This document shows positions 4,434 through 40,896 of a stretch of 40,896 nt of DNA, piece by piece (the stretch's first letter is position 1; every line of letters begins with the position of its first letter). The DNA lies in the IMG/VR virus record IMGVR_UViG_3300025324_000004. One strand, 5' to 3'. Source of the DNA: a virus. A program made the position numbers and the translations under genes. The notes beneath the pieces are model-generated. The model worked only from the letters and a program-made list of their open reading frames with translations, did not search any database and was not told the origin of the DNA.

Positions 4434-5564
4434 TTGAAAGCTCTTTACGCTTTGTTTGCATTGATGCCGTTTTTCGCGCTTCCGTTTGCGGCTGATCAAG
4501 GCCGAATTCCTAGAATCGGATTGTTCCTTATTTCCGTAGGTGCGGCGAATCTGCTTGAAATGGCGAAAAGGCCGCTGAGAGTCTATTGGAACCGCGATCT
4601 GGCTCTGTTCTTGGGTTGGCTTGGCATCCTGTGGATATACAGGCTGGCTTGGCCCATGATGTGTTCCAAGTCAATGGTTCTCAATTTCTCTGAGGTCATG
4701 GCCTACTTCAATTTCGCGGCTGCCGTTTCCCTTTTCTGGCTTCTGGCGACACGGACTACGGCTAGAGATTGGGCGAGTCTCAATTTCATTATCCAGGTTA
4801 CAACTCTTGCGATAGCCCTGGTCGGAATCGGCCAAAAATTTGGGCTGTCTCCAATAGAGTTAAACACAAAAATAGGCCCGAATCCGGTCGCCGGATTTTT
4901 CGATAACCCGACTATATTTGGGTCATTCGTAGCGCTTGGAGCCTGCTCAATGCTCTCTTTTGAGGGCATTTTAGGCATTTGGGGCTATCTCATCTGCGGG
5001 ATAGCTATCGCCTTAAGCAATAGCGCGTCCGGGCTTACGGTTTGGTTCCTGGCGCTTGCAGTTCATTGGGTTATTGGCTTTGAGTTCAAAAGAGGAATGA
5101 TTCTTGGACTGTCCGCCTTTTTTGCGTGGTGGTTTCTCTCGCTCAGAGACGGTTTTTTCAGCATCGGAGACCGACTTGTCTATTGGGGATGGGCGAAAGA
5201 CTTGTGGCTTGAAAAATTTTGGTTTGGGTGGGGACTAGGAGCCTATCAGTTAATCGGATCGACCGAAGGCAAGCCCGGTTTTTGGAATAACGGGCATTGG
5301 GCTGCTCAGGCGCATAACGATTATTTGCAGCTTGGAGTCGAGGCCGGAATTATCGGACTCGGCCTTCTCTTTTGGTTCATCTATGGGATTTTGAGGAATT
5401 ACTTCAAAGCTCAGAAACCTGAAATATCTCGCGGCTGGCTTTCAGGATTTGTTGGATTTGGGGCGCTTGCTTTTGTTGGATTCCCGGCCCACCTGCCGAT
5501 GACTGCCATGCTTGGAGTCTTTTATTTAGCAGGCCTTGAATCCGTCGGGAAGCAGAACGGTTAG
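4434..5564 (+). CDS. O-antigen ligase / Wzy_C-family polytopic membrane protein (WaaL/Wzy/PglL-like)
   Basis: Multiple hydrophobic segments. It carries the Wzy_C signature AHNDYLQLGVEAGIIGLGLLFWF. The start is TTG with a weak SD, or alternatively ATG at 4464. Confidence 0.75.
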   Translation: MKALYALFALMPFFALPFAADQGRIPRIGLFLISVGAANLLEMAKRPLRVYWNRDLALFLGWLGILWIYRLAWPMMCSKSMVLNFSEVMAYFNFAAAVSLFWLLATRTTARDWASLNFIIQVTTLAIALVGIGQKFGLSPIELNTKIGPNPVAGFFDNPTIFGSFVALGACSMLSFEGILGIWGYLICGIAIALSNSASGLTVWFLALAVHWVIGFEFKRGMILGLSAFFAWWFLSLRDGFFSIGDRLVYWGWAKDLWLEKFWFGWGLGAYQLIGSTEGKPGFWNNGHWAAQAHNDYLQLGVEAGIIGLGLLFWFIYGILRNYFKAQKPEISRGWLSGFVGFGALAFVGFPAHLPMTAMLGVFYLAGLESVGKQNG

Positions 5565-16246: not shown

Positions 16247-17478
16247 TTCCAGCTTCGGTATTAGCCTTTTCGGTATTAGCCTTTTCGGTATTAGTATGGG
16301 CAGTGCCCGACACGCTTATGACTATTGCCCCTTCCGCTCAGTCCGGGACGACTATCACGGCGGCAGATGAAAACGATAGAAATAACGACGTTTCAACGGT
16401 TTATAATGGGCATTCTCATGCCGATATCTCATCAACAAGCGCCAATACGTTTACTATCGGAAACGGAGCTGCAGGGAATAAGGATTATGCGATAAGTGAT
16501 GGCACAAATAGCGCGGCAGTCAGATGGGATGGGACAAATACGCGATGGGAAGTTACCAATGACGGCTCGACTTATTTGAGTCTTGTTACAACGACCGGCA
16601 CGACCACAACATTCAATACATTACCGAATTCGGCTTCTGCGAACACTATTTTGTATTCAGACGGAAATTCATGGAATGCAGGAACAGACAGGGTTGCTGA
16701 TTTAGCTACAGGCGCAGGAGAGATCCTTTATTCGACTGGTGTGGATGCTTTGGCTGTATTAGCTGCTGGAACATCCGGGCAAGTTCTTCAAAGCAATGGA
16801 GCCGCCGCTCCATCATGGGTTGATTCAAGTGATCCTACGGATTACGTTACTTTCTATGAAGAATTCCTTACTTCAGATGAGGCTTCTACCGGCGCGGCGA
16901 GAATGATCCGGTCTCAATATGCTTGGCGTGTAAGAGGGAAGGCTATAACCGGCACTTATGATGATAATGGCCTTTGGGAGATTGATGGTGACGCGGCAGC
17001 TGATGTAGGAGAGATGTTCCTATCGAATGGGGGAACCGCTACAACAGATATCGCTCTTCCATTCAAAGCGTCCCTTAATCCGACCGTCATTATAAATTGG
17101 AGAAATGATAATGGTTCTGCGAGTGGGGCAAATTGCTATTTAGGTCTTTTCAGCGATTTTACAAGCGCAGCGGCCCCTACAAACGGCGTTTATTTTAATT
17201 GGGATGGTAATTCTAGAGATATCAACTTGATTACTAATGCAGCCGGGATCACCACAACTGATACGCTTGTTAATTCTGACACAGCAACATCCCACACATT
17301 TAAATTGGTGTTTACCGACACTACCAACATAGCTCTTACTGTTGATGGAGGTTCAGTTATAAACATCACGGCAAATATTCCAAGCGACGATTTGGGGATT
17401 GCCTTTACCGGGCCAAACAGCACCGCTAATCGCGGAGTTATCATCGACTACATCTATGTAAAGCAAAATAGGAGTTAG
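16219..17478 (+). CDS. Tail-fibre-like protein with signal peptide (419 aa from ATG 16219)
   Basis: GGAGG lies 6 nt upstream of ATG 16219. The N-terminus is MVRSLFKSVIPASVLAFSVLAFSVLVWA/VP. The body is T/G/A/N-rich. Confidence 0.6.
   Translation: MVRSLFKSVIPASVLAFSVLAFSVLVWAVPDTLMTIAPSAQSGTTITAADENDRNNDVSTVYNGHSHADISSTSANTFTIGNGAAGNKDYAISDGTNSAAVRWDGTNTRWEVTNDGSTYLSLVTTTGTTTTFNTLPNSASANTILYSDGNSWNAGTDRVADLATGAGEILYSTGVDALAVLAAGTSGQVLQSNGAAAPSWVDSSDPTDYVTFYEEFLTSDEASTGAARMIRSQYAWRVRGKAITGTYDDNGLWEIDGDAAADVGEMFLSNGGTATTDIALPFKASLNPTVIINWRNDNGSASGANCYLGLFSDFTSAAAPTNGVYFNWDGNSRDINLITNAAGITTTDTLVNSDTATSHTFKLVFTDTTNIALTVDGGSVINITANIPSDDLGIAFTGPNSTANRGVIIDYIYVKQNRS
16254..16294. repeat. 15-bp tandem repeat (ttcggtattagcctt) x about 3 inside the signal-peptide coding region
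   Basis: Read directly. ttcggtattag occurs at 16254, 16269 and 16284. It encodes SVLAF-SVLAF-SVLV. Confidence 0.9.
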
Positions 17479-22090: not shown

Positions 22091-22580
22091 TAACAAGATC
22101 AGGTTCCTTCTCTATCTTCATGGTTCGCCCAACAAGCCTGGCGGGGAATTCCCTGATTCGGCTTGAGCCAAGCCAATCCTCATTGTTGATTTCCTGAGAG
22201 ATCCCCGGCCTGAAATAGTCCATGCTTTCCCAGGTATACCCCCAATAAATGGCCGGGTTATCCATCTTGACCCACTTACCTTTTTCGAGAATCCAGCTTT
22301 TGGACACTTCTATTTTCTCGAACTTTTTATGCAGCTTGATTTCTTCCAGCAAATCCCACGGTAAATCCCACCGCACATAAGCTCTCCAGTGTGTTGTGCT
22401 GTCTTGGCCGGCGGCTATAAGTGGGCTTTCGATCTTGGCTAGGTTATCTTTTCTCATGCCTGAAAGTATTTGGTATCCAACATAGAGAGCAGGCAGCAAG
22501 AACGTAAAGAAAGCCACTATCAAGAAATCAATAATGTTGATTTTCCCGAACAGCCGCCCTTCCGAATCAATGAGTTTCAT
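22077..22580 (-). CDS. Membrane-anchored protein resembling the DUF4330 type (167 aa from the internal ATG)
   Basis: The N-terminus MKLIDSEGRLFGKINIIDFLIVAFF matches my memory of DUF4330. It is the last gene of the minus-strand glycan cluster. Confidence 0.45.
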   Translation of the reverse strand: MKLIDSEGRLFGKINIIDFLIVAFFTFLLPALYVGYQILSGMRKDNLAKIESPLIAAGQDSTTHWRAYVRWDLPWDLLEEIKLHKKFEKIEVSKSWILEKGKWVKMDNPAIYWGYTWESMDYFRPGISQEINNEDWLGSSRIREFPARLVGRTMKIEKEPDLVISAQ

Positions 22581-23751
22581 ATTTATCCAGCAAATCCGTA
22601 TACCAAGCTTGTCTTCTTTGCATGTTTGTCTCGATGTCATGGAAAGTCTTAGCGATTTTTAGGGCGGAGATACTTACTTGAATTGCATAATCAGGATAGT
22701 CAAGCAAATCTCTAATGCTCTCTGCCGCGCCTTGAATGTCTCCTTCTGAAAGCAGAAGGCCGCCCCATTTTGTCTTTTCGATCAGTTCATTGTGCCAATC
22801 AACGTCATAAGCGACGATTGGTCTCCCTCCAAGCGCGGCCTCAACCAATGAGTTCCCGGCCATGAGACAGATGTTTATATCTGCCAATTTGCGCCAAGTG
22901 GGTATCTCCGCATAAGGCCGCCACCCATAGAAAATGACGTTCTGGCCGATAGTAGAGTCCGAAAGCCTCTTATATTCCGGCCCATCTCCGATAAAGAGAA
23001 GAGCGGTCTTGGGATGGGTTTGTCTGACTCTGCGGTGGATTTCAACGATATCGTCCACATAGTTCTCTTTGCTTAACCTACCGATGCTGACAAGCAGCTT
23101 GCAATCTGGAATCTCTTTCTGAATCCTCTCAACGGCAAACGCCACTATCGGCAAGTTCGGCTCGTTATATTCCTCTTGCGCCACCTGGAATCTGTCCAGA
23201 AGCAGGTTTTTTGCACCATCCTTTTCGGCTTCCTTCAGTAGATTCATGGACCTTGCCATAACCCCATGGGCGCGGCTAAGCACAAATCGCCTCAACTTCT
23301 TTGCCAGCCATCTTGAGCCAAGGATTTTTGGGAATAGATAAGTCGGGCCAACAAGTCGGTATCTCAAATCTTCAGGTGTTCTGAGGCTGACCATAAACGG
23401 CACATTGGCTTTCTTGGATGCCAGCCAAGCAATAAATCCGCCGACATAAGGGTCGTGAACCTTAATTAAATTCCTGTCTCCTGGGGAGACGCTCCATCGG
23501 ATAGTTGTATACAAATTGATTAAATATCTCAGTTTTCCTTTCCATCCATTGCCGCATTTTTTTCTGCCTAATTCAGTGACGAAATGTTTACCATTTACCC
23601 ATTGTTCATGATTGTATAAAACGGGGAAATGAATCGAAGTAATTCTTTCCCAGTAGCCGCCGTCTGACCGTTCTTCCAGTTTTTCTTCCATTTTCCTGTC
23701 TTTTAAGGCGGTAAGAGATGTCGGTACGATGCAAATCAAGTTATTTCCCAT
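22567..23751 (-). CDS. Glycosyltransferase, GT1/GT4 (Glycos_transf_1) family (394 aa from ATG 23751)
   Basis: The C-terminal motif region is LLFIGDGPEYKRL ... NSLVEAALGGRPIVAYD. SD AAGGA lies upstream of the internal ATG. Confidence 0.8.
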   Translation of the reverse strand: MGNNLICIVPTSLTALKDRKMEEKLEERSDGGYWERITSIHFPVLYNHEQWVNGKHFVTELGRKKCGNGWKGKLRYLINLYTTIRWSVSPGDRNLIKVHDPYVGGFIAWLASKKANVPFMVSLRTPEDLRYRLVGPTYLFPKILGSRWLAKKLRRFVLSRAHGVMARSMNLLKEAEKDGAKNLLLDRFQVAQEEYNEPNLPIVAFAVERIQKEIPDCKLLVSIGRLSKENYVDDIVEIHRRVRQTHPKTALLFIGDGPEYKRLSDSTIGQNVIFYGWRPYAEIPTWRKLADINICLMAGNSLVEAALGGRPIVAYDVDWHNELIEKTKWGGLLLSEGDIQGAAESIRDLLDYPDYAIQVSISALKIAKTFHDIETNMQRRQAWYTDLLDKYETH

Positions 23752-24076
23752 CTTCAATCCTTTTGAGCGACTCCTGTATTTTTTGTATATCTCTCTTGAG
23801 AGCATTCCAATCATCGAACTTGGCATAATTGAACTTGAGTTCCCGACCATAGAAAATTTTCCTGTCTATCCAACCAAAGATGAGGAATGTGGACACCGTA
23901 GCAAGATAGAGAAGGACAAACATCTTTTTCAGGTCGAATGCGACCAGAAGGTCTTGAGATTGGAGGTTGGACAGGAAGATATATAACAGCATCCCCGAAT
24001 TGAGCAAGCTGGCCCAAGACGCGCTTCTACTCAATAGGATTTTAGCGAATACCAGACTATCTAGTATTCTGTTCAT
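23741..24076 (-). CDS. Small 2-3-TM membrane protein with a charged C-terminal helix (111 aa)
   Basis: ATGA overlap with the upstream gene stop at 24073-24076. Confidence 0.5.
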   Translation of the reverse strand: MNRILDSLVFAKILLSRSASWASLLNSGMLLYIFLSNLQSQDLLVAFDLKKMFVLLYLATVSTFLIFGWIDRKIFYGRELKFNYAKFDDWNALKRDIQKIQESLKRIEDGK

Positions 24077-25170
24077 TTGAATTGAGGGTACTTGTCCAGA
24101 GAGTACTCCAAATAGCCGGGCGGTATCTTCTTGATTCTGACCTCCTGCGACCACGGCCACCTTGCTTTTCCGCTGGCTTCAAGAGCTGTAAAGAATGGAA
24201 CGTAATAGTCTGTCAGACTGTTCGGCCAATACTGGTAATAGTTCCCGGCCTCGCTAAAGAACATGGGTGAGTCACCGCACTCCTTATCGCGCCATTCCAA
24301 GGAGTCAAAGAAAACAAACTGTCTTGGATGCCACCAGGGATATTTCACCGTGAAGTTATTTCTCATTCTGAGCGCAATCTTCCAATAGCGGTCAAAATAT
24401 TTGGCCTTGTTTGGATTCTCTACTTCCTGTGAATAGAAATTGACAACCTTAATTGAATCCAGCTTATTATCCAAAACCGCCCTATGCAGACCTATGGCCG
24501 ACATTATCTGGCCTCCTGCCGTGTAATAGACGCCAAGATCAGGGTCGAGAACACCCCAAATGTTGTCCTCATCCAAATATTCGGTCACAACATGGCCGTT
24601 CTTGTTCTTGTCTTGGAGAATCACCACCCTAGCTGGGATGCCTACAGATACCAGACATTGCATGAGCGTGTAGGCCGATTCGCCGCAGAGGAAAGTTTCC
24701 CCCTTTTCCGCTCTTCTCAGGACATGGAGCGCATCGAAATTCCCGAAATTGGTCGGTTCTTTCGGCGAGTTGTGGCCCCACTGTTCATGCACCCACTTTC
24801 CCAGAGCGATTGGGTTGTCTTTGAATCGGTCCAGTTTGAACTCATCTCTTAACTGTCTAAGGTTTCGTTCAGGGTCTTTTTCGGCAAGAAAGAAAGGCTC
24901 CTTGAATAGAAATGATGCCGGGTCAAGAAGCCTCTTTAGACTGATGCTGCCTGTCAAAAGAACAGTTAGCCCCGCCCAAAAGATTAGAACTCCGAGTGCC
25001 CCCTGCCATATCCATCTTGTTTGCTGTCTACACTCCTCTTCTGTGCGAACTATCTTGATATACACGGCATCTAAGGCATTCCTGAAATCGAAATCAAGCA
25101 AAAGAGTAATCGTCCTTGCAATCATTAGAACGCCTACAGTTATGAGAGAAAAGCAAATTAGTATAGTCAC
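24073..25170 (-). CDS. Membrane protein with a transglutaminase-like Cys-His-Asp core (365 aa)
   Basis: The motif is FLCGESAYTLMQCLVSVGIPARVV...GHVVTEY...WGVLDPD. It has N-terminal TM segments and a GTG start. Confidence 0.6.
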   Translation of the reverse strand: MTILICFSLITVGVLMIARTITLLLDFDFRNALDAVYIKIVRTEEECRQQTRWIWQGALGVLIFWAGLTVLLTGSISLKRLLDPASFLFKEPFFLAEKDPERNLRQLRDEFKLDRFKDNPIALGKWVHEQWGHNSPKEPTNFGNFDALHVLRRAEKGETFLCGESAYTLMQCLVSVGIPARVVILQDKNKNGHVVTEYLDEDNIWGVLDPDLGVYYTAGGQIMSAIGLHRAVLDNKLDSIKVVNFYSQEVENPNKAKYFDRYWKIALRMRNNFTVKYPWWHPRQFVFFDSLEWRDKECGDSPMFFSEAGNYYQYWPNSLTDYYVPFFTALEASGKARWPWSQEVRIKKIPPGYLEYSLDKYPQFK

Positions 25171-26989: not shown

Positions 26990-26990
26990 G

Positions 26991-27260
26991 TTATCTCCTC
27001 AGACGATTAAAAAATTTTACCGCACCAGTCCATACAAACGTCCATGATTCTTTACAATACTCGCTAAATGTTAATCCGGAATACACAATAAAAAATCTGA
27101 TAAACCATACCAAAAAAATGAATAACGATATGAAAACAATTATGGGAACCAGTATATTTTCCGATGTATCTTCTTCAATCCATTGATGACCGCATTTAGG
27201 ACAATTCGTATAATCGTTTTTCTGATTGTATGGAATAATGATCGGCATAAAAAAATTCAT
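26991..27260 (-). CDS. Small membrane protein with a CPKCG zinc-ribbon half-site (89 aa)
   Basis: ATGA coupling to the upstream micro-ORF. The TM segment is ILVPIIVFISLFIFLVWFIRFF. Confidence 0.5.
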   Translation of the reverse strand: MNFFMPIIIPYNQKNDYTNCPKCGHQWIEEDTSENILVPIIVFISLFIFLVWFIRFFIVYSGLTFSEYCKESWTFVWTGAVKFFNRLRR

Positions 27261-27430
27261 TTTCTTTTTCGTTTGTAAACAATCCGCCCTTTGTCACAAC
27301 AAGAACATTGCCCGCAATGGCAATATGGGTGGTTCGCCCGACAAGCTGCACAAATCACATGCGCTCCACAACAGCGGCACCAACCACAATGGCCTTCTAA
27401 TCGACGGCATTGATCACATGGGCTATACAT
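27257..27430 (-). CDS. Cys-rich 57-aa protein (13 Cys; below the track cutoff)
   Basis: My own translation is MYSPCDQCRRLEGHCGWCRCCGAHVICAACRANHPYCHCGQCSCCDKGRIVYKRKRK. ATGA overlap with the next gene. Confidence 0.45.
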   Translation of the reverse strand: MYSPCDQCRRLEGHCGWCRCCGAHVICAACRANHPYCHCGQCSCCDKGRIVYKRKRK

Positions 27431-27504
27431 TATTTAATCACCCCTTAGCACACTCCGGGCAGGTGTGTTCCCACTCTCCCCCTGATTTTGAGATGCGCCA
27501 ATTA

Positions 27505-27639
27505 TCATCTTTTGCCTCCTGGATGAAATCGCTGAATGACGAATCTTCGTCTCCACAGGTCTTTGACAATTTCTGATAAGACGATTAGATGAATTTTCAG
27601 TTCAAGAGTTTCTAGGTGAAGGTGTTCAATGTCAATCAT
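27505..27639 (-). CDS. Hypothetical 44-aa protein
   Basis: TAATG overlap with the stop of the 389-aa gene. The track ORF 27505..27696 was shortened to the coupled ATG. Confidence 0.35.
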   Translation of the reverse strand: MIDIEHLHLETLELKIHLIVLSEIVKDLWRRRFVIQRFHPGGKR

Positions 27640-28808
27640 TAGGTCAACACCTTTGGATAACGTCTCACGGATTTTGCCGATTTCGGCCAAACACAAACAT
27701 CTCCCTGTTGGAACCAGGAATCTCCTGTTTCGTCGTTAATTGGGAGTGCCTGTAATTGTGGTGGTTTCCTGGCGTGTAATGCCTGTTCAACGGTTTCACA
27801 TTCATTTGGCACACCTTCAACATGCCAAATGCCGACAGATGGATTTTTCATCTTGAGATAACGGCATTGTTGGTCATTTAAGGCAACACTCAGCAATTCA
27901 TAATCACCTTGTCTGTTTAGGACATTCGCTCCGGACAATTGAATAAATCGCTCAATTCCAATTTTTCTAATCAATGCTGCTCTCTGTTCCGCATTTTTGA
28001 GACTGAAAATCTGATCTTTAGTGATTTCTTGCGTTTTAGTCAGAACTGCCCATTCAGGCAAACGAACTCCCCAGAGAGCGTAAATCCCCCATCCATCCGG
28101 ATAAGCTAAAGCCATGGCACCTTCTTCATGCAACCGCCCTTGGGCATCTTTATGGATAACTTCAGGCCGTTCACAAACGATAGCAAATTCGTTAAGTGCC
28201 CAAATCGGCCCAGATTCAGTAAGGACTTTTAATTCATCATAAAACGGGACTGAAATGTTAACTCCGATATTTTTCATCGATTCGAAATAAGACCACCAGC
28301 TTGCTTCGAAACTACCAAATAGATAAGGCCAAATAAAATAACCACCATACAAGTCAACCTTCCCCTCAACCTGCTGCCTAACCTGCTGCTCAACCTGCTG
28401 CTCAACCTGCTGCTCAACCTGCTGCCACATCTGTTGCCACACCTGCTGTATAACCTGCTGCTCAACCTGCTGCTCAACCTGCTGCTCAACCTGCTGCCTA
28501 ACCTGCTGCATAACCTGCTGCATAACCTGCTGATCAACCTTCGGCACAACCTGCTGCCACACTTGCTGCCTAACCTGCTGCAACGAATTACAAAATAACG
28601 TTGCCCTCCATGCCTGTATCGGCGAATCCATAAAAATTACAGCCTTTAAATTTTTACGATTTAAAAACGATGGATAAATTTTCCTCAGTGTCTGTTCGAT
28701 TAATTTTTTATCTAACGGTTCGGTACAAAGTCCTCTTTTTATCCAAAAATCTGCCGTTTCCTTCAGAATTTGTAGATGACTTTTAGTGAGTCTGGTTATT
28801 TTAGTCAT
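27639..28808 (-). CDS. Protein with a central (QQVx)18 repeat and a conserved-looking C-terminal domain (389 aa); I recall DUF6745-type proteins looking like this
   Basis: Long ORF. The C-terminal part reads CERPEVIHKDAQGRLHEEGAMALAYPDGWGIYALWGVRLPEW. The family assignment is from memory only. Confidence 0.65.
   Translation of the reverse strand: MTKITRLTKSHLQILKETADFWIKRGLCTEPLDKKLIEQTLRKIYPSFLNRKNLKAVIFMDSPIQAWRATLFCNSLQQVRQQVWQQVVPKVDQQVMQQVMQQVRQQVEQQVEQQVEQQVIQQVWQQMWQQVEQQVEQQVEQQVRQQVEGKVDLYGGYFIWPYLFGSFEASWWSYFESMKNIGVNISVPFYDELKVLTESGPIWALNEFAIVCERPEVIHKDAQGRLHEEGAMALAYPDGWGIYALWGVRLPEWAVLTKTQEITKDQIFSLKNAEQRAALIRKIGIERFIQLSGANVLNRQGDYELLSVALNDQQCRYLKMKNPSVGIWHVEGVPNECETVEQALHARKPPQLQALPINDETGDSWFQQGDVCVWPKSAKSVRRYPKVLT
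28367..28584. repeat. About 18 tandem 12-bp units (consensus caacctgctgct on the plus strand) inside the 389-aa gene
   Basis: Read directly. The repeat is in frame and encodes QQVE/QQVR/QQVW/QQVM units. Confidence 0.95.
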
Positions 28809-30043: not shown

Positions 30044-30646
30044 TTAGAAGCGTAGCACCAGACCGGATGAGATGTCAATACTGTCGTTATCTGCATCCAC
30101 GTTCAGGCTGCCGATTTGGTACTGAGTGTCTGAGAAAATCACAGATGCGTCTGCGAACAATGCCAATTCCACACCTGTCCAAGACTGGCTTTCGTCCGAT
30201 GCCCCGTGAATCTGCCATTCGAACCCGACGCCGGCCAGATACCGAGCGCCGTTTTTCGCGTTTAGCGGAAGTCCCTGCACATCGGAATCGAGGTCAATGT
30301 CTCCGTATCCGATCCCGGCCAGCAGATACGGCTGGAGCTTCTTGTAATTAGGCAGCCCGGCATATTTTACGAGCAGATCGAGTGACGTTTGGCTTTGGTC
30401 GGCGATATCCGTCTTTGAAAACGGCGATTCAACTTCATGATTCGTGATTCCGAACCTCACACCGCCTTCCAGCCCGGCCACATCCGGCACAGTCGCAAAA
30501 ACCCCGACTTGGCCTCCGGCTCCAACCTGAACATAATCCGCATCCGGATTAGAGATTTTCATTCCCGCCTCTGCCGACAAATCCAAAGCGTAAGCAGGCG
30601 CAGTCACTACCAGAACCATCCCAAGCAACAGAAACAGCTTCCTCAT
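30044..30646 (-). CDS. Outer-membrane beta-barrel protein (small OMP_b-brl / OmpX-Ail-Lom-like), 200 aa
   Basis: Signal peptide MRKLFLLLGMVLVVTAPAYA/LD. It has alternating amphipathic strands, a PYLLAGIGYG motif and the C-terminal signature ...GLVLRF. Confidence 0.8.
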   Translation of the reverse strand: MRKLFLLLGMVLVVTAPAYALDLSAEAGMKISNPDADYVQVGAGGQVGVFATVPDVAGLEGGVRFGITNHEVESPFSKTDIADQSQTSLDLLVKYAGLPNYKKLQPYLLAGIGYGDIDLDSDVQGLPLNAKNGARYLAGVGFEWQIHGASDESQSWTGVELALFADASVIFSDTQYQIGSLNVDADNDSIDISSGLVLRF

Positions 30647-30779: not shown

Positions 30780-31232
30780 CTAGCTTAATTTGGCTAATTC
30801 CGCCTTCAATTCGAGTTCAAGCGCTTCCAGATCACGCCCCTTACCGCTTCCATTGGCCCGAATCCTGAGTTCATCCAATGAACTCCGCTCAAAGACTGAT
30901 GAACCTATAATGTTTTTAGCCAAGTCCATTGCATAAATGGGATCGCGATGCCAACCGTAGAGGTGGTGGCGTAAACAGAGCGCGAATCCGTTAGCCAAAT
31001 CCCATCTTGTTGCGGGATGGGCGCCCCTGGAATAAATATGAGATGCTTGCAAAGAGGCTGTCTTGCCGCAGCCAGGCCATAGACATTTCCCATCTCGCTT
31101 ACGAATAACAAGGCTCCAGAGCTTGTCGAGATCCTTTCGGAGTCTTGCTCTTGCTCTTGTTTTTGTTGACTTTCCATTTTTGGCCCATCTCCTTAACCGA
31201 GTTCTACTTTTGAGAGGCTTCCGCCCTTTCAT
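30780..31232 (-). CDS. NinG/Rap-like protein (HNH-like Cys/His motif), 150 aa
   Basis: It has a basic N-terminus. The motif is CLWPGCGKTASLQASHIYSRGAHPATRWDLANGFALCLRHH, as in lambda NinG-family proteins (from memory). Confidence 0.55.
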   Translation of the reverse strand: MKGRKPLKSRTRLRRWAKNGKSTKTRARARLRKDLDKLWSLVIRKRDGKCLWPGCGKTASLQASHIYSRGAHPATRWDLANGFALCLRHHLYGWHRDPIYAMDLAKNIIGSSVFERSSLDELRIRANGSGKGRDLEALELELKAELAKLS

Positions 31233-31250
31233 CGAGCCGCGCCCGGAAGG

Positions 31251-31453
31251 TTATCCACAGGATAAACCATAGCAGCTAAATATCTTAACTTATTTGTCAA
31301 CATAGAAATAGGTATTTTACAAAAGTTATCCACAGGATAAATAGTTGCGAATAAAGCACTTAACATACTTATCCACAGGCAAAAAAGCCGTTTTTACAGA
31401 GTTATACACAGGATAACCCATTATCAATACAGCAGTTAAGGTAGTTATCCACA
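31251..31453 (+). repeat. Five iterons carrying DnaA-box sequence: TTATCCACA at 31251, 31326, 31369 and 31445; TTATACACA at 31402
   Basis: Read directly. All are in the same orientation and extend to TTATCCACAGG(A/C)(T/A)AA. Confidence 0.85.
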
Positions 31454-31546
31454 GGCAAGCTACTACTACTACTATTTATATCATTCAATATAAGAGAATT
31501 AGTTATTAGTAATAGTGCTAGGTAACTAGTAACTAAGTAATAAGTA
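31454..31546. other. AT-rich tract with (tac)n and repeated (t)agtaa(c/t)t motifs; candidate DNA-unwinding element of the origin
   Basis: It reads ctactactactactatttatatcattcaatataagagaattagttattagtaatagtgctaggtaactagtaactaagtaataagtatta. Confidence 0.5.
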
Positions 31547-31813
31547 TTATAGGAGCGTTGCATTATTTAGACATGTAGTGGATGGTGTGGAGGGTGTTGA
31601 GAATCTTAGACGCCAAACAGTGTGTTTGTCGCCGTTGACAATCTTTGAATCGCAGTCTATTTGCCAGCCTTCTTTTCTGAGGTCGGAAATTCGAGCGCGA
31701 TAACTTGCTCCTAATCCGGCATCGGTGAAATCACAGGTCAGAACAGGGCCGCATCTTAGAAGCCAAAGGACGAATTCTTTATCAGACCGGATAAAAGCAG
31801 GTCGGTAAATCAT
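31547..31813 (-). CDS. Small winged-helix-like DNA-binding protein (88 aa)
   Basis: The motif ASYRARISDLRKEGWQI ... HTVWRL is typical of wHTH phage proteins (from memory). It is adjacent to the origin. Confidence 0.45.
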   Translation of the reverse strand: MIYRPAFIRSDKEFVLWLLRCGPVLTCDFTDAGLGASYRARISDLRKEGWQIDCDSKIVNGDKHTVWRLRFSTPSTPSTTCLNNATLL

Positions 31814-33542: not shown

Positions 33543-34073
33543 TCAAGCTCGGTTCATCCCCGTGTGTATGGGTAACACATCTACTACTTTGCAGGTTACA
33601 GGATTTGTGATTTTTCGATAAAACACATGGCGGCCTATTGTTACAGTTTTTTCCATGGAATCTGCCCAATAGGGATACTTTTTCATTGTGGCGGCGTGAT
33701 AATGAGTGGCGCCTTCGGTTATATCCGCCTGGATAGGCGAATTTACGATTCTTTGCCATACTAGGCTCGAGTTCTTTAGTTCTGAAGCCCAACTAGGCAT
33801 TGACATGCGGGAGGTCCTCCAAGATGCCGTTTTAGCGTCTTTATTCCAGCAGGAAAACTGATAGGGGCGCAGGACCTCAAATTCCGGCGTAGTGCCATGA
33901 TCTCGCGCTCTATTCAGAATCACCCATGCAACGGCTTCCATGCCTACTACACCCTCTCCAGAGGCTTCCAGGGCTATTGTGGCTGGTACTCTGATCACAA
34001 CATCCAATTCGCCGGCATAAGCCGTAACCGCTAAACTGCACACCGCCATAGCCAAACATGCCCCTAAACGCAT
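33543..34073 (-). CDS. Secreted cell-wall hydrolase, SleB/Hydrolase_2 family (176 aa from ATG 34073)
   Basis: Signal peptide MRLGACLAMAVCSLAVTAYA/GE. The motifs are EAVAWVILNRARD ... QFSCWN ... GATHYHA. ATGA overlap with the upstream gene. Confidence 0.75.
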   Translation of the reverse strand: MRLGACLAMAVCSLAVTAYAGELDVVIRVPATIALEASGEGVVGMEAVAWVILNRARDHGTTPEFEVLRPYQFSCWNKDAKTASWRTSRMSMPSWASELKNSSLVWQRIVNSPIQADITEGATHYHAATMKKYPYWADSMEKTVTIGRHVFYRKITNPVTCKVVDVLPIHTGMNRA

Positions 34074-34483
34074 CACCCTTCGAACCTGCAGCAAATTTCT
34101 TCTGCCGCTAACCAGGCCATGGCATTGCTTATCCTTGGAAATTTGATGTTGTCTAGGTTGTCCCATTTGCCGAAAATTACCTGGCCTATGTCCGTTTCGC
34201 TAAAAACTCCGCTAAGGCATCGAAAATCTTTTATCATAACTAACATCTCCACTCCAACTTCTTCAGCCAGATTTTTTGCCATTTGACAAATTGCAGCTCG
34301 GTGTTTTCGGAAAAAATTACTGGTGTCAGTGTAGTAAGTAAATCCGCTAAAACCGCCGCTAATGCCGTTATTGCAAACATCCTGGATGAAGTCCCTGCCT
34401 ATGCGCCGATAGACAGCTCGGATTAAAGGCTTTTCAAATTCTTGAGCCTCGCCCAATACCTGATTTAACGTTTTCATTTTCAT
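34073..34483 (-). CDS. Hypothetical protein, paralog A of 35411..35827 (136 aa)
   Basis: The proteins align over their full length. The C-terminal 40 aa are almost identical (SETDIGQVIFGKWDNLDNIKFPRISNAMAW..). Confidence 0.6.
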   Translation of the reverse strand: MKMKTLNQVLGEAQEFEKPLIRAVYRRIGRDFIQDVCNNGISGGFSGFTYYTDTSNFFRKHRAAICQMAKNLAEEVGVEMLVMIKDFRCLSGVFSETDIGQVIFGKWDNLDNIKFPRISNAMAWLAAEEICCRFEG

Positions 34484-35410: not shown

Positions 35411-35827
35411 TCATCCTTCGAACCTCCGGCAAATTTCTCCTGCTGCAAACCAGGCCATGGCATTGCTTATCCTTGGAAATTTGATGTTGTCTAGATTGTC
35501 CCATTTGCCGAAAATTACCTGGCCTATGTCCGTTTCGCTAAAATCGTCGCTGAGGCGGCCTTCAAGACAACCCCAGCTCTTTATCATCGTCAACATATCC
35601 TCTCCACGTCCGTAAGCCAGATTTTCTGCCATTTGACAAATTGCAGATCGGTATTTTCGGAAAAATTTACTGGTATCAGGGTAGTAAAAAAATCCTGGGA
35701 ACCCTGTCTCTATGCCGCGAGTGTAAACAGCCTGTACGTTGTCACTGCCGAGGCGTCGGTAGACAGCTCGAATTATCGGCTGTTCAAATTCGCGAGCCTC
35801 ATTTAGGACCCGCGTAAAGGTTTTCAT
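35411..35827 (-). CDS. Hypothetical protein, paralog B of 34073..34483 (138 aa)
   Basis: See paralog A. SD GGGAGAAAA lies upstream. Confidence 0.6.
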   Translation of the reverse strand: MKTFTRVLNEAREFEQPIIRAVYRRLGSDNVQAVYTRGIETGFPGFFYYPDTSKFFRKYRSAICQMAENLAYGRGEDMLTMIKSWGCLEGRLSDDFSETDIGQVIFGKWDNLDNIKFPRISNAMAWFAAGEICRRFEG

Positions 35828-36122: not shown

Positions 36123-36153
36123 GATCTCTCCTTTTGGTTTGTCAACCAATACA

Positions 36154-36182
36154 AGACTACATTAGTCAATCTATTTTGTCAA
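36154..36182 (-). promoter_or_regulatory. Candidate early promoter: TTGACA, 17-nt spacer, TAGTCT
   Basis: Read on the minus strand. It lies in the divergent region between the minus-strand operon and terS. Confidence 0.4.
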
Positions 36183-36210
36183 GTAATATTCTCAAGGTAT
36201 TTATGATATA

Positions 36211-36783
36211 ATGGAAGGCATGAAAGAGGAGAGACAGGCACCACAGATCGAGCCGCAAATTGAGGGAGGGTTATCTATTCCGGAGCCGGGAAGAAAACCG
36301 CGAAAGTATGTCGAAGCCGTTGACAACAAAAATAAAGTCAATCCCGCCTCTATCGCGGAAACGCTAACAGGCAAAGACGTTGCGAGCCGTAAGGTATCTT
36401 TGAGAAAACAAGTTAAGACCCAACCGACTAAGAGACAATCACTATTAGCTAAAAACCTGCTAAACCCGAATACTATGACAACTAAAAAAGCTATCCTAAA
36501 TGCAGGATATGCTCAGTCTACCGCAGAAGCACAGACTAAAGGCATTTTGGCTTCAGTCGGGTTAGGTATAGCCATAAGACAGGCCACTGCTTTAATGCCA
36601 ACACTTTACGACATTGCTCCAAGGATAAAACACTGGTTAAATTCTCACGATCCTGCCCCTAGTCTGAAGGCAGCAGAGCTTTCCCTGAAGCATTTACAGG
36701 ATTCTCCAACCAGAGAAGATGAAGACATTTACGCTAAAGACGCCTTAACCTATCTCAACAGTCCTTCCTCTTCTGTTCTATAA
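36211..36783 (+). CDS. terS: Terminase small subunit (190 aa; alternative start ATG 36220)
   Basis: The HTH-like motif KRQSLLAKNLLNPNTMTTKKAILNAGYAQSTAEAQ is typical of Terminase_2-type small subunits. It lies upstream of terL. An extended -10 (TGaTATAAT, 36204-36212) overlaps the first ATG. Confidence 0.6.
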   Translation: MEGMKEERQAPQIEPQIEGGLSIPEPGRKPRKYVEAVDNKNKVNPASIAETLTGKDVASRKVSLRKQVKTQPTKRQSLLAKNLLNPNTMTTKKAILNAGYAQSTAEAQTKGILASVGLGIAIRQATALMPTLYDIAPRIKHWLNSHDPAPSLKAAELSLKHLQDSPTREDEDIYAKDALTYLNSPSSSVL

Positions 36784-37300: not shown

Positions 37301-37648
37301 ATGGAATTGACAAATGAATGCCCCAAATGCGGTTCCGGGTATATCTGGATTCTGATGCCGAAATATCAAGGGAGGGTGTGGGCGTGCGGCAAATATCCTG
37401 GTCATGTGCTTGGGATCGCCTTTGTGAGATATTTTCAGGGATGTAGGAAGGATGAAGAGGGTAATATCGTGGCGTATGGAAACTTCTACGCTTTGACCAG
37501 AGGCGGGATTCCGATCACAAAGAGGGTTAAGAAGGAGTATTATGACTTTGAGCGAAGCTCATTGGAAGGTAAAGATGGCAAAAGGGAAGAGACCTTACAA
37601 GATTACCAAGGAGCGCAGCTCAAAAGCAGGAAAGGTGGTTGGTACTAG
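37301..37648 (+). CDS. Zinc-ribbon protein (CPKCG ... ACGKYPGH), 115 aa from ATG 37301 (the track starts at GTG 37259)
   Basis: ORF between the non-coding gap and terL. Its 3' part overlaps 37542..37712 in another frame, so the true end is uncertain. Confidence 0.4.
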   Translation: MELTNECPKCGSGYIWILMPKYQGRVWACGKYPGHVLGIAFVRYFQGCRKDEEGNIVAYGNFYALTRGGIPITKRVKKEYYDFERSSLEGKDGKREETLQDYQGAQLKSRKGGWY

Positions 37649-37764: not shown

Positions 37765-38055
37765 ATGTTGACAGATTCGATCCCTGTGCAACCGCCTAAC
37801 CAGCCTCCCCTGAGCGAAGCTCATCAATCAGAAGTTCTTCTTGTCGTTTCCCGCTCGGCGCCGGACTCGAACGGGATCGGAAAGATTTCTCTCAATAGCC
37901 CTCTTCCTCCGCTGGCGATTTTGTCTTTGATTTCGACTCTGATCGAGATGCTTGTCAAAGACATTACCTTCAAATCTCAAAAACGGATTGATATAGCTAA
38001 ACCGGGTGGTCTTACGCCGGGTGGCCTGATGAATTTCCTGCGCCATAAGAAATGA
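37765..38055 (+). CDS. Hypothetical protein (96 aa)
   Basis: ATGA overlap with the terL start. Confidence 0.5.
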   Translation: MLTDSIPVQPPNQPPLSEAHQSEVLLVVSRSAPDSNGIGKISLNSPLPPLAILSLISTLIEMLVKDITFKSQKRIDIAKPGGLTPGGLMNFLRHKK

Positions 38056-39962
38056 GTAATGAACCATTTCAAGAGGAAGTTCCTCAACCCAAATCAGAAG
38101 AGTCCCCGCTAGAGTCATTCGAGCTTCGCTCACACGAGCTTCGCTCACACGAGCTTCGCTCACAATCTTTCCCTGCGGAAGTCCATTTCGAGAAAGTTAG
38201 CACCAAAAAAAGTCTGTATGCCTGCGGTTGCGGAGAACTCAAACAGAAATTCCAGATTCTGAGACTGACCGCCGCATTGGACCTTTTCTATCTGACGAAA
38301 TATGTTCTTGGATATAAAGACCTAAACGAAAAACACAGACTCATCTGTGATCTTGTCGCAGCCCAAAATATCATCTGGTGGAAGAAAGCCTCTTCCCAAT
38401 CTTCTCAGAAAAGAGTAATGGTTCACCCATGCTCGGAATCCGTTTTTAAAACGCCGAGAATCACGAAATTGAGGGCCGATATGCAAGCCTTCAAAGAGAA
38501 TCCGATCTATCAAAGATTGTGGCTCATGTTCCGAGGCGCGTTCAAAACGACCATCATCTCGAAAGCGCATACTATCCAGGCCATGCTCATCTATCCTGAT
38601 ATCCGAATCCTGATCGCCCATAACAAACTTGGGAACGCGGAAGCGATCCTGAGAGAAATTAAGAACCAGTTCATCTTCAACGCCCTTTTTAGACAGCTAT
38701 ATCCCGAATATTGCCCGAAAAGAGGGCCTGGCGGGAAAGTGGAGTGGGGCACTACCGAACAAGTCACTCTCCCTAATCGCAGTCAGACTTTGCAGGTGCA
38801 GGAGCCGACCATTGATACGATGGGCGTAGATACCATGAAAACGGGCATGCACTACGACTTGCATAAAAGAGACGACCTTGTAACCGAACTGAGCGTTACC
38901 AATGAAGAACAGATCAATTCGTCCATTCTTGGGGATGCTTCCATGCAGCAGCTTTTTAACCGGCCTGCCGTCGGGTTTGTGGATAGAATCGGGACTCCGT
39001 ATCACTACGCGGATTTGTACCAGAAATTGCAGACGGATGAAGTAAAGAAAATGGATCACGGCTATTGGAGGGAAGGAGCGCAAAGCGTTTTCAAATTGCC
39101 TGTTCATGACGAGGCCGGCATTTACCAAATACCTGAAATCCTGAATGAAGAAGGGTTTGAGAGAATCAAAAGTTCTCCCACAATGGACCCTTATACAGTC
39201 AATACACAATATCTTTTGAAGCCAGTTAACCCATCCAACCAGGAATTTAAACCGGATTGGTTCAGAGTTTGGCATGAACCTGTTGCGTTGGAAGGAACTG
39301 TCGCTTATCTCAAAATCGACCCGGCCACCTCCAAAAGAAAGAAATCGGATTACACGGTCATTCTTTATACTCAGATAGACGGCAAGAAAATTAAATACAC
39401 CACAGACGGAATCAGGGACAAACTCAACGTCACGGAAAGGATTCATGCGGTTATTAGGTTCCTTAAGGCGTATCCCAATATCATCGGCATCTTGTACGAG
39501 ACGGTCGGGTTCCAAGAAACGGACGCTGTTTATCTCAGAGAAGCAATGAGAGAAAACAAATGCGAAAGAATCATCTATGAGATAAAAAGTCCGAAACATT
39601 CAAAGGCTGACCGAATCCGAAGGCTGATTGCCCCATATTCGAATTCCTCCTGGTACTGGAAAAACCAGATTTTCTATACCGCCCTCCATGACGGCAAGGT
39701 CCATAATCTGACCGAGGAAGCACGGTATGAGGCTTATACTTTTCCATTTTCGGAACATGACGATATCCTCGACTGCCAAAGCCAGCTTCTTGACCCGGAC
39801 ATCATGCTGGCTATGGGCTATTCTGTGAAGAAAGAAACTAAGTCGGATAAAACCACCTACCGCGATATCCATAATATGCTCAGACGAGAGAAGAAAGTTT
39901 CGTTCCGGTCTAAAGAGGACAGGACTCGCTTCTGGCAAGCTAAAATGGGCATTGAATTGTAG
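38052..39962 (+). CDS. terL: Terminase large subunit (636 aa)
   Basis: The ATPase region reads MFRGAFKTT. The RNaseH-like nuclease motifs are YLKIDPATSKRKKSDYTVI, YETVGFQE and FSEHDDILDC. The portal gene follows. Confidence 0.9.
   Translation: MSNEPFQEEVPQPKSEESPLESFELRSHELRSHELRSQSFPAEVHFEKVSTKKSLYACGCGELKQKFQILRLTAALDLFYLTKYVLGYKDLNEKHRLICDLVAAQNIIWWKKASSQSSQKRVMVHPCSESVFKTPRITKLRADMQAFKENPIYQRLWLMFRGAFKTTIISKAHTIQAMLIYPDIRILIAHNKLGNAEAILREIKNQFIFNALFRQLYPEYCPKRGPGGKVEWGTTEQVTLPNRSQTLQVQEPTIDTMGVDTMKTGMHYDLHKRDDLVTELSVTNEEQINSSILGDASMQQLFNRPAVGFVDRIGTPYHYADLYQKLQTDEVKKMDHGYWREGAQSVFKLPVHDEAGIYQIPEILNEEGFERIKSSPTMDPYTVNTQYLLKPVNPSNQEFKPDWFRVWHEPVALEGTVAYLKIDPATSKRKKSDYTVILYTQIDGKKIKYTTDGIRDKLNVTERIHAVIRFLKAYPNIIGILYETVGFQETDAVYLREAMRENKCERIIYEIKSPKHSKADRIRRLIAPYSNSSWYWKNQIFYTALHDGKVHNLTEEARYEAYTFPFSEHDDILDCQSQLLDPDIMLAMGYSVKKETKSDKTTYRDIHNMLRREKKVSFRSKEDRTRFWQAKMGIEL
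38121..38165. repeat. 15-bp tandem repeat gagcttcgctcacac x3 inside the terL 5' end (encodes ELRSH x3)
   Basis: Read directly. The unit is the reverse complement of the tgagcgaagctc motif of the 2729-2806 array. Confidence 0.95.
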
Positions 39963-40019: not shown

Positions 40020-40083
40020 CGGGTATATTGGGGGCGCGAAATCAATCACAGATCAAACCATTGAATCAGACGTAAGAGTCTGG

Positions 40084-40896
40084 ATGGCGCGTATCCGTCG
40101 CGCCGAGGAATACCAGAAAAAGCAGCATGATTTCTGGAATCGAAGTCGCGACCTTGCTACCGGGGCCAGGTTTGCCAATGACCCTTTTTACATGGCGCGT
40201 GGCGGGCATTTCACGAATCTTGCGACCGCCTATATTGACACCCACCTTCCGGCTGTTGTGTTTAGATACCCTAAAATCAATATCAAAGCGAAACAACGAC
40301 ATGCTTCTCTTGACATGATCCGATTCGCTCAGGCCATGTCCGATACGGAAAATCATCTTTGGGAAGATCAGGATCAAAAATCTGAAGACCGAAAATCAGT
40401 TTTGGATGCCATCTGCTACTCAATCGGCTGGATGAAAATTGGATTTCAAGCTCAATTCGGAGCAGTGGAAACGGAACAAAATCAGGAAATGAGCTTTGAA
40501 AACCTCAATACCGCCCTTCTGGAACAGGAAAAAGACCTTTCTAGGCAGACAAAACAGGGCAAAGTGATCGAAATGTCTGAGAAAGTCCAGTCGGAAAGCG
40601 TTTATTCCTGTTGGGTGTCTGCTTTCGATATGTTTGTGCCGGAAGGGTATCATTATATTGAGGACATGCCATATCTTATTCAAAGATATGTCCAGCCCAT
40701 TGAAGATATTCGTAACAATACTCTTTTCAACGAGAACCGTGAATTTGTCCAGTCTAAAAAGAGATCGTTTACCTCTTCTAAGGGCGTTTTGTTCCAGAGA
40801 CCACAACAGGATTCCAGATCGGTTGTCTCAGATTTCGATCAAGATGTCGGTGAATATTTCGAAGTTTGGGACAAAAGAGGCCAAAGCCGGTTCTAT
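40084..40896 (+). CDS. Portal protein, N-terminal part (open to the window end; continues at base 100 after the 99-bp overlap)
   Basis: My own translation from ATG 40084 is MARIRRAEEYQKKQHDFWNRSRDLATG... with no stop to 40896. It is in frame with 1..1281. The ORF track misses it because it has no stop in the window. Confidence 0.75.
   Translation, partial: MARIRRAEEYQKKQHDFWNRSRDLATGARFANDPFYMARGGHFTNLATAYIDTHLPAVVFRYPKINIKAKQRHASLDMIRFAQAMSDTENHLWEDQDQKSEDRKSVLDAICYSIGWMKIGFQAQFGAVETEQNQEMSFENLNTALLEQEKDLSRQTKQGKVIEMSEKVQSESVYSCWVSAFDMFVPEGYHYIEDMPYLIQRYVQPIEDIRNNTLFNENREFVQSKKRSFTSSKGVLFQRPQQDSRSVVSDFDQDVGEYFEVWDKRGQSRFY
40798..40896. repeat. Second copy of the 99-bp terminal overlap
   Basis: Identical to 1-99. 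Confidence 0.95.

Follow-up and report, generated by a model that had tools for sequence, protein, structure and literature searches.

How a tailed phage begins to copy its genome when it carries no recognisable replication gene is the question raised by a short element in the virus record IMGVR_UViG_3300025324_000004 of IMG/VR, a stretch of 40,896 nucleotides (hereafter the window) in which the element occupies positions 31251 to 31546. Textbook tailed phages bring their own means of initiation, for example the O and P proteins of lambda, the A protein of P2, the RNA polymerase of T7 or the recombination of T4, and to our knowledge DnaA is at most a helper at the phage and plasmid origins described so far. 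An earlier note on this DNA had pointed out a cluster of DnaA boxes beside an AT-rich tract, and had suggested that the phage recruits the DnaA of its host, with a phage-encoded dimeric initiator or a titration of DnaA as the other options. Our analysis, which is computational throughout, favours the first of these, and we consider with moderate confidence that the element is a host-DnaA-dependent replication origin that mimics the basal unwinding system (BUS) of the bacterial chromosomal origin, oriC. We lean this way because the module is complete at the sequence level and lies in a complete phage genome without recognisable replication genes. Support comes from the polarity of the DnaA-trios, the unstable duplex beside them, the gene content of the phage, and the recurrence of such modules in unrelated phage contigs.

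A full-text literature search (subscription-only papers lay outside its scope) returned nothing that ties DnaA-trios or oriC-like origins to phage genomes. The BUS itself is known; what would be new is an origin of the BUS type that sits on a phage replicon, in which the unit is triplicated and boxes have a palindromic extension. If the reading is correct, this phage starts replication from a functional copy of the module that unwinds the chromosome, modules of box plus trios can move from one type of replicon to another, and the phage is coupled to the cell-cycle control of DnaA-ATP in its host, where it competes directly with oriC for the initiator. With its length of about 300 bp, the element could also provide a small natural substrate on which to test the BUS model, and its sequence signature could help to predict origins in the many uncultivated phages without replication genes.

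Box array, trio run and unstable tract

The cluster described in the earlier note, four perfect copies of the DnaA box TTATCCACA and one variant in the same orientation within 203 bp, was confirmed, with all five on the plus strand. The perfect 9-mer occurs nowhere else in the window, and a scan of both strands with the relaxed consensus TTWTNCACA matched these five boxes only, where by our arithmetic about 2.5 matches would be expected, scattered genome-wide. The features of the element are as follows.

31251, 31326, 31369 and 31445 (starts), + strand: perfect DnaA boxes TTATCCACA, from a sequence scan
31402 (start), + strand: DnaA box TTATACACA, one mismatch, fits TTWTNCACA
31247..31457, + strand: three tandem direct-repeat units of 75/76 bp, 64-73% identical, with an A-type and a B-type box in each
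31251..31265, + strand: site A1, perfect box TTATCCACA plus GGATAA, forming the palindrome TTATCC-ACA-GGATAA
31294..31302, + strand: site B1 of unit 1, degenerate box TTGTCAACA with two mismatches, 43 bp after A1
31326..31340, + strand: site A2, perfect box plus GGATAA, perfect palindrome
31369..31377, + strand: site B2, perfect DnaA box followed by GGCAAA
31402..31416, + strand: site A3, TTATACACA (one mismatch) plus GGATAA, imperfect palindrome
31445..31453, + strand: site B3, the proximal perfect DnaA box, pointing at the trios as in bacterial unwinding modules
31454..31459, + strand: G+C-rich gap of 6 bp, GGCAAG, from the proximal box to the first trio
31460..31480, - strand: DnaA-trio run, 3'-GATx5 AAA TAT-5' (the + strand reads CTAx5 TTT ATA)
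31474..31546: AT-rich candidate unwinding element, 78% A+T, from a stability scan

Each 76-bp unit is laid out as an A site, GTTAT(C/A)CACAGGATAA, followed 43 bp later by a B site, TTATCCACAGGCAA. The three A-type sites (15-17 bp) stand 75-76 bp apart and are interleaved with the B sites, and the spacings from box to box within these direct repeats are 75, 43, 33 and 43 bp, which puts the distal boxes at distances of 43, 76, 119 and 194 bp from B3. Two finer claims of the earlier note needed correction here. The longer iteron ascribed to every box holds at four of the five sites, the extensions being GGATAA three times, GGCAAA once and GGCAAG once, and the inverted repeat ascribed to three boxes is indeed found at the three A sites but is perfect in only two.

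Across the module the plus strand reads TTATCCACA GGCAAG (CTA)5 TTT ATA, so that the minus strand carries seven trios with a central A, five of the seven being the consensus 3'-GAT-5'. What the earlier note had called (tac)n is exactly (CTA)5 at 31460-31474, the sole trinucleotide repeat of at least four units in the window; that first description had missed the in-phase trios that follow the last box. The AT-rich tract that it had placed downstream is present (31460-31546, 87 bp, 76% A+T), and in a nearest-neighbour scan of the whole window no other 40-bp duplex is as unstable as 31474-31513, whose value is -39.2 kcal/mol where the genome averages -55.0 (sd 3.8). This duplex starts at the last base of the (CTA)5 run and lies about 4 sd above the genome mean. 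The single strand of the tract has no significant self-structure (z = 0.66), and in the region of the element we found neither an Rfam family nor a tRNA, and no promoter, sigma-70-like or other, and no terminator that was convincing. Within the tract, 31495-31546 shows recurring units of 6-8 nt that end in TAG or AAG (TTATTAG TAATAG TGCTAG GTAACTAG TAACTAAG TAATAAG TATTATAG), which may be a second motif for single-strand binding or helicase loading.

The genome around the element is complete. An exact terminal overlap of 99 bp (1-99 = 40798-40896) indicates a complete circular genome of 40,797 bp, and a portal-sized open reading frame (ORF) of 664-691 aa crosses the junction (40003-1281), for which reason the minus-strand ORFs at 40066-40806 are probably spurious. 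Among its products we recognised a large terminase, a major head protein, a tail fibre, an amidase, a Hydrolase_2 lysin and a NinG/Rap-like nuclease, together with outer-membrane beta-barrel, glycosyltransferase, transglutaminase-like and Wzy_C-like proteins. No ORF matched an initiator, helicase, helicase loader, primase, polymerase, integrase or partition family in Pfam or PHROGs, which bears out, for a complete genome, the earlier remark that no phage replication protein is recognisable. The presence of an outer-membrane beta-barrel gene suggests that the host is diderm. All genes of the region lie on the minus strand, and two of them flank the element:

30780..31232, - strand: NinG/Rap-like HNH junction endonuclease (phrog_5034, E 9e-12), downstream of the boxes
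31547..31813, - strand: 88-aa winged-helix protein, HTH_39-like, from homologues and a structural model

Bacterial origins and other viral contigs

In bacteria, the BUS of oriC is made up of a DnaA box, a spacer, DnaA-trios and AT-rich DNA (Richardson 2016 and 2019; Pelliciari 2021 and 2023). The published search rules allow a box up to two mismatches and a spacer 0-16 bp, and ask for at least three NAN trios with the consensus 3'-GAT-5', the G+C-rich gap being about 4 bp on average. In the phage element, the box at 31445-31453 is perfect and has four co-oriented boxes upstream, the spacer is 6 bp long, five consensus trios are joined by AAA and TAT, and the easily melted 31474-31513 adjoins them. 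The polarity is likewise that of bacteria, as the box lies upstream of the trios and on the complementary strand, just as in the oligonucleotides for Bacillus subtilis and in the published Table S1; in the oligonucleotides and tables the top strand of B. subtilis reads TTATCCACA AATCCACA GGCC CTA CTA TTA CTT CTA CTA. On a scale that we inferred from the examples in Table S1, which come with no stated formula (GAT 4, AAT 3, TAT 2, AAA 1), the phage run scores about 23, compared with 25 for B. subtilis, 19 for S. aureus and 7 for E. coli.

The phage element therefore resembles a bacterial BUS in its proximal box that faces the trios, its short G+C-rich gap, its opposite-strand run of 3'-GAT-5', its AT-rich DNA and its distal boxes, the nearest of them 43 bp upstream. 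The module of B. subtilis depends on the orientation of its proximal box, and a distal box there has to stand 44 bp or more upstream; helical phase suits it best, and a distance of hundreds of base pairs is tolerated. The phage boxes at 43 and 76 bp fit these effective positions. The differences are the tailed-phage genome, the gap of 6 bp, the lack of a tandem weak box, and the arrangement of the boxes in a triplicated 76-bp unit with a palindromic extension at three of them. In addition, whereas the chromosomal module usually lies beside dnaA or dnaN, this one lies in a circular phage genome between the winged-helix and NinG-like genes, and for that reason we treat it as working like a BUS, not as a chromosomal oriC.

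The same architecture also occurs in other viral contigs of IMG/VR. The strict pattern TTATCCACA-N(2-16)-(CTA)4 matched 17 contigs, 16 of them independent (L133 and L140 are related), where chance was estimated to give fewer than one. In 16 of the 17, at least three co-oriented boxes, and in nearly all cases three to eight, lie within 400 bp upstream, and many of the contigs also have AT-rich DNA downstream and a weak tandem box with a 4-nt gap (tATCCACAGG-NN-CTA, the arrangement of boxes 6/7 in B. subtilis). None carries a dnaA signature, and the genes that flank the modules include terminase (L135, L146), capsid (L144), RecT (L142) and GH25 lysin (L145) genes. L135 has a distant terL match to the present phage; otherwise the contigs show no relation to it, nor, beyond the pair L133 and L140, to one another. 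Controls of wrong polarity yielded far less: trios on the wrong strand matched one contig, and inverted boxes matched five, namely one coding-like sequence four times and a microsatellite, with no box clusters or origin-like look among these control matches. A looser scan, TCCACAGG-NN-(CTA)3, added 21 contigs, seven of which have at least three co-oriented boxes upstream. Box-plus-trio modules, as judged from their sequence, thus recur in unrelated phages; the lineage of the present phage is not among them.

A different kind of cluster is widespread in IMG/VR. More than 120 viral contigs (L001-L120) carry clusters of 2-20 perfect boxes, commonly at spacings of 11, 22 or 33 bp. These clusters, found with pairs of TTATCCACAGG, were rejected as support for the recurrence of the module, as they have no strict CTA trios and form a separate class; they are possibly sinks for DnaA, or origins with degenerate trios.

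Proposed mechanism and rival readings

From the architecture of the sequence we infer DnaA binding, unwinding, helicase loading and a part for the winged-helix protein, in the following order. Host DnaA-ATP would fill the five co-oriented high-affinity boxes at 31251-31453, and DnaA at the proximal box, 31445, would nucleate an AAA+ filament that extends over the 6-bp gap. The filament would then bind the minus-strand trios (3'-GAT-5' five times, AAA, TAT) as single-stranded DNA and, by stretching, open the duplex into the unstable AT-rich tract at 31474-31546, while the distal boxes, 43, 76, 119 and 194 bp upstream, would feed or stabilise the complex by looping, as in B. subtilis. The helicase, loader, primase and polymerase of the host would start theta replication, the phage giving no replication protein of its own. 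Leftward early transcription through the element may help to expose the trios, because the trio strand is the non-template strand. Perhaps the NinG/Rap-like nuclease acts later, in the recombination-dependent formation of concatemers, and perhaps the GGATAA palindromic extension on three boxes lets the winged-helix protein gate the access of DnaA; for the palindrome, the most economical idea is that this protein or another dimer may modulate that access at three of the five boxes.

It is tempting to go further, though only tentatively, and to see here an unrecognised class of tailed phages that possess no initiator, helicase, primase or polymerase of their own and carry a BUS mimic as an oriC impostor under full control by host DnaA. 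In the present member of such a class, the winged-helix protein would gate DnaA through the palindromic extension on three boxes, as an origin regulator analogous to CtrA, Spo0A or SeqA.

Several observations weigh against an origin of this kind. The cumulative GC skew, which the earlier note had proposed as a check, has its maximum near 22 kb and its minima near 36-40 kb and 0.5 kb, at the strand switches and away from this locus. Plus-strand genes have a skew of +0.09 and minus-strand genes of -0.13, and because skew thus follows the coding strand it cannot locate the origin; within the minus-strand block, the skew is -0.151 left of the element and -0.087 right of it, a shift that has the sign expected for an origin but is weak and confounded by gene content. 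The check is uninformative here. The boxes, moreover, were judged by the TTATCCACA consensus, and unrelated loci with paired A-type sites, which we tried as a route to the identity of the host, were uninformative. No tandem weak box stands beside the proximal box. At 10.5 bp per turn the helical phasing of the boxes is not significant, and although a fitted period of 10.8 bp phases all of them (R = 0.99), the corrected p is about 0.13, since tandem duplication leaves only two independent spacings; the phasing is thus suggestive only. Other perfect iteron-like arrays exist in the genome, for example at 2729-2805. Most ORFs of the phage have no detectable family, so that the result from Pfam and PHROGs means no recognisable replication genes, not a proof of absence, and a novel initiator or helicase loader may be hidden among them. 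The distant relatives of the phage lack the element, and for this reason its conservation cannot be shown; variants of the phage (L122-L130, L170, L172) are identical across it and so provide no evolutionary footprint.

The gap is a further such point, at 6 bp compared with 3-4 bp in the experimentally validated bacterial modules. We therefore searched 185,579 reference genomes for TTATCCACAGG-N4-(CTA)3, the geometry of the phage gap, and two matched, both resembling real origins with tandem boxes and CTA trios:

L174, 4347-4370, and L175, 7205-7228: the two bacterial modules with tandem boxes, a 6-bp gap and CTA trios

The module in a Clostridia metagenome-assembled genome (MAG) reads TTTTCCACA TTATCCACA GGGAAA (CTA)4 AAATATATATA and lies directly upstream of dnaN. 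That in an Alphaproteobacteria MAG reads TTTTCCACA TTATCCACA GGATAA CTACTACTACTT ATTTATTTTATATAA, lies among nusG, rplA and rplJ, and has as its gap the GGATAA of the phage. As these two modules share the phage geometry and one stands upstream of dnaN, a gap of 6 bp is, on the sequence evidence, rare but natural, and is used in a chromosomal origin region.

Of the rival readings, we regard as unlikely an array of iterons or operators for a dimeric phage protein, for instance the 88-aa winged-helix neighbour, which would recognise TTATCC-ACA-GGATAA as a lambda O-like initiator or as a regulator of the NinG and outer-membrane protein (NinG-OMP) genes, with DnaA at most accessory. The neighbour is, to be sure, a real winged-helix protein. 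Most gene callers skip its ORF and its codon usage is marginal, but an exhaustive HMMER search found remote homologues of 74-85 aa, HTH_39 of Pfam is matched by three of the seven aligned family members (best E 2e-7), and an alignment-based AlphaFold model (pLDDT 84) has three helices and a beta-hairpin wing; a single-sequence model (pLDDT 60) was too poor to use. The GGATAA extension is conserved in all three A sites even though the units are only 64-73% identical, in other viral clusters it is rare (found at 3 of the 403 boxes that have GG after them), and the start codon of the NinG-like gene has box A1 only 19 bp upstream of it, all of which would suit a phage regulator. The best structural matches of the model in the Protein Data Bank (PDB) are PadR, MarR and HxlR regulators, and PadR and MarR regulators are dimeric. 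These matches are weak (E 0.03-0.2), however, and are to generic regulators rather than initiators, and next to those homologues that could be placed in context (L159-L163), which represent four other settings, neither DnaA boxes nor repeats occur. Thus the suggestion of the earlier note that the neighbour is a winged-helix protein stands, while its role as initiator is weakened, both by its PadR/MarR-type look and by homologues that do not lie beside box arrays. In addition, two B sites, including the trio-proximal box, keep the perfect 9-mer without the palindrome; the palindrome occurs nowhere else in the genome, the divergent early-promoter region included; no sigma-70-like promoter marks the region; and the trio run and its polarity are left unexplained. 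Iteron origins (P1 oriR, RK2 oriV, pSC101, F and the lambda ori) do share with the element repeated sites beside an AT-rich unwinding region, DnaA boxes and a mobile replicon. Their iterons are direct repeats of about 17-22 bp, three or more of them close together. Such origins need a cognate Rep or O initiator encoded nearby, however, and DnaA boxes are accessory in them, whereas in the phage the repeats are consensus DnaA boxes themselves, a trio run is present, and no Rep/O-type family was detected by Pfam or PHROGs, the neighbour being a PadR/MarR-like winged-helix protein.

Quite improbable, in our judgement, is that the element is a sink of the datA kind, in which the boxes titrate or inactivate DnaA and stop chromosomal initiation and the element itself is not the phage origin. 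Each genome copy does bring five high-affinity boxes, and trio-less clusters of 2-20 perfect boxes, some of them possibly sinks, are common in viral contigs. The datA and DARS loci of E. coli, like the element, gather a few high-affinity boxes outside oriC; both trios and an unwinding element are missing from them, and they depend on IHF and on a particular orientation of their boxes, with boxes I and II of DARS head-to-head, in contrast to the phage boxes, which are all co-oriented and adjoin an unwinding-type module. A sink has no need of trios with the right polarity, or of having the genome's least stable duplex beside them, and the phage would still require an origin, for which we found no other candidate and no initiator. 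The titration option of the earlier note leaves the trios and the unwinding-prone tract unexplained. Least probable of all, and in our view very unlikely, is a role of DnaA outside replication, whether in timing NinG-OMP transcription, as a membrane anchor, or at a pause site for DNA entry such as that of T5. It draws on the position of box A1 near the start of the next gene and on T5-like phages, in which consensus DnaA boxes, about eight of them, are conserved in the non-coding injection-stop region, a region argued not to be an origin (bioRxiv 10.1101/866236). The T5 boxes form pairs 3 bp apart in the large inverted repeats of a terminal repeat, a layout absent here, where the boxes lie in direct repeats of a circular assembly without a long terminal repeat; trios are not described in T5, and a non-replicative role would leave both trios and unstable tract without explanation. 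No rival accounts for the trios, their polarity and the unstable tract together, and a host-DnaA-dependent origin is the best explanation of the element.

Relatives, neighbouring genes and further repeats

The element is not an assembly chimera, because copies of the region that are identical to it, or nearly so (about 99%), come from 12 or more independent assemblies (ENA, JGI and Logan), including two contigs of 40,862 bp. The differences within this population are concentrated in a mosaic patch (about 33.2-34.3 kb) spanning lysin and DUF7222 genes. Beyond the population, a DNA similarity search of deposited phage genomes gave no match, protein searches of IMG/VR with the 88-aa and NinG-like proteins gave no relatives, word-indexed homology searches with the same two proteins gave self-matches only, and a terminase search gave a 5.8-kb fragment in IMG/VR and nothing in the reference genomes. 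Sequence searches of the PDB with the 88-aa, 150-aa and 1166-aa proteins found no match.

Terminase relatives of 35-43% identity, on contigs of 43-46 kb, have the same layout, in which terL is preceded by a leftward early block. Within 10 kb of their terL we found no cluster of DnaA boxes, and in two of them the early block contains AAA_25 helicase-type, AAA_24 and ERCC4 genes instead, a pattern that would fit the modular replacement of a replication module. These relatives also carry large sugar- and methyl-transferase modules.

Near the element, the position of the NinG-like gene recalls lambdoid phages, in which NinG is placed after the replication genes. The intergenic gap itself had been called the largest on the minus strand, which depends on the gene calls: 26990-27638 is left uncalled by ENA, but JGI places a 112-aa gene there. 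Elsewhere the genome encodes a set of cell-surface functions (4434-5564, 22567-23850, 24073-25170 and 30044-30646); a Wzy_C-like O-antigen ligase domain is encoded among the head and tail genes, and the others are a GT1 glycosyltransferase, a transglutaminase-like protein and the outer-membrane beta-barrel. Between 28354 and 28581, a 12-nt unit is repeated about 19 times in frame and gives a tetrapeptide-repeat domain in a 389-aa DUF6745 protein (27639-28808), and the early block holds two paralogous DUF7222 genes (34073-34477 and 35411-35827) of about 79% nucleotide identity.

The iteron-like array at 2729-2805 is a perfect 16-bp tandem repeat (TTGAGCGAAGCTCCTG) in 4.8 copies just upstream of the major head gene. 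The core of its dyad, TGAGCGAAGCTC, recurs twice before terL and three times, reversed, inside the 5' end of terL (37549-37562, 37811-37824 and 38115-38164), and the array and these sites are candidate pac or TerS-binding sites, or sites for a late regulator. Further short perfect tandem arrays lie in or near structural genes, at 1272-1315 (13 bp, 3.4 copies), 1796-1832 (18 bp, 2.1 copies) and 16254-16294 (15 bp, 2.7 copies). Finally, the divergent early control region between the leftward and rightward blocks (36123-36210) contains the motif TTTGTCAA twice, together with the duplex (36172-36211) that ranks second in the genome for instability.

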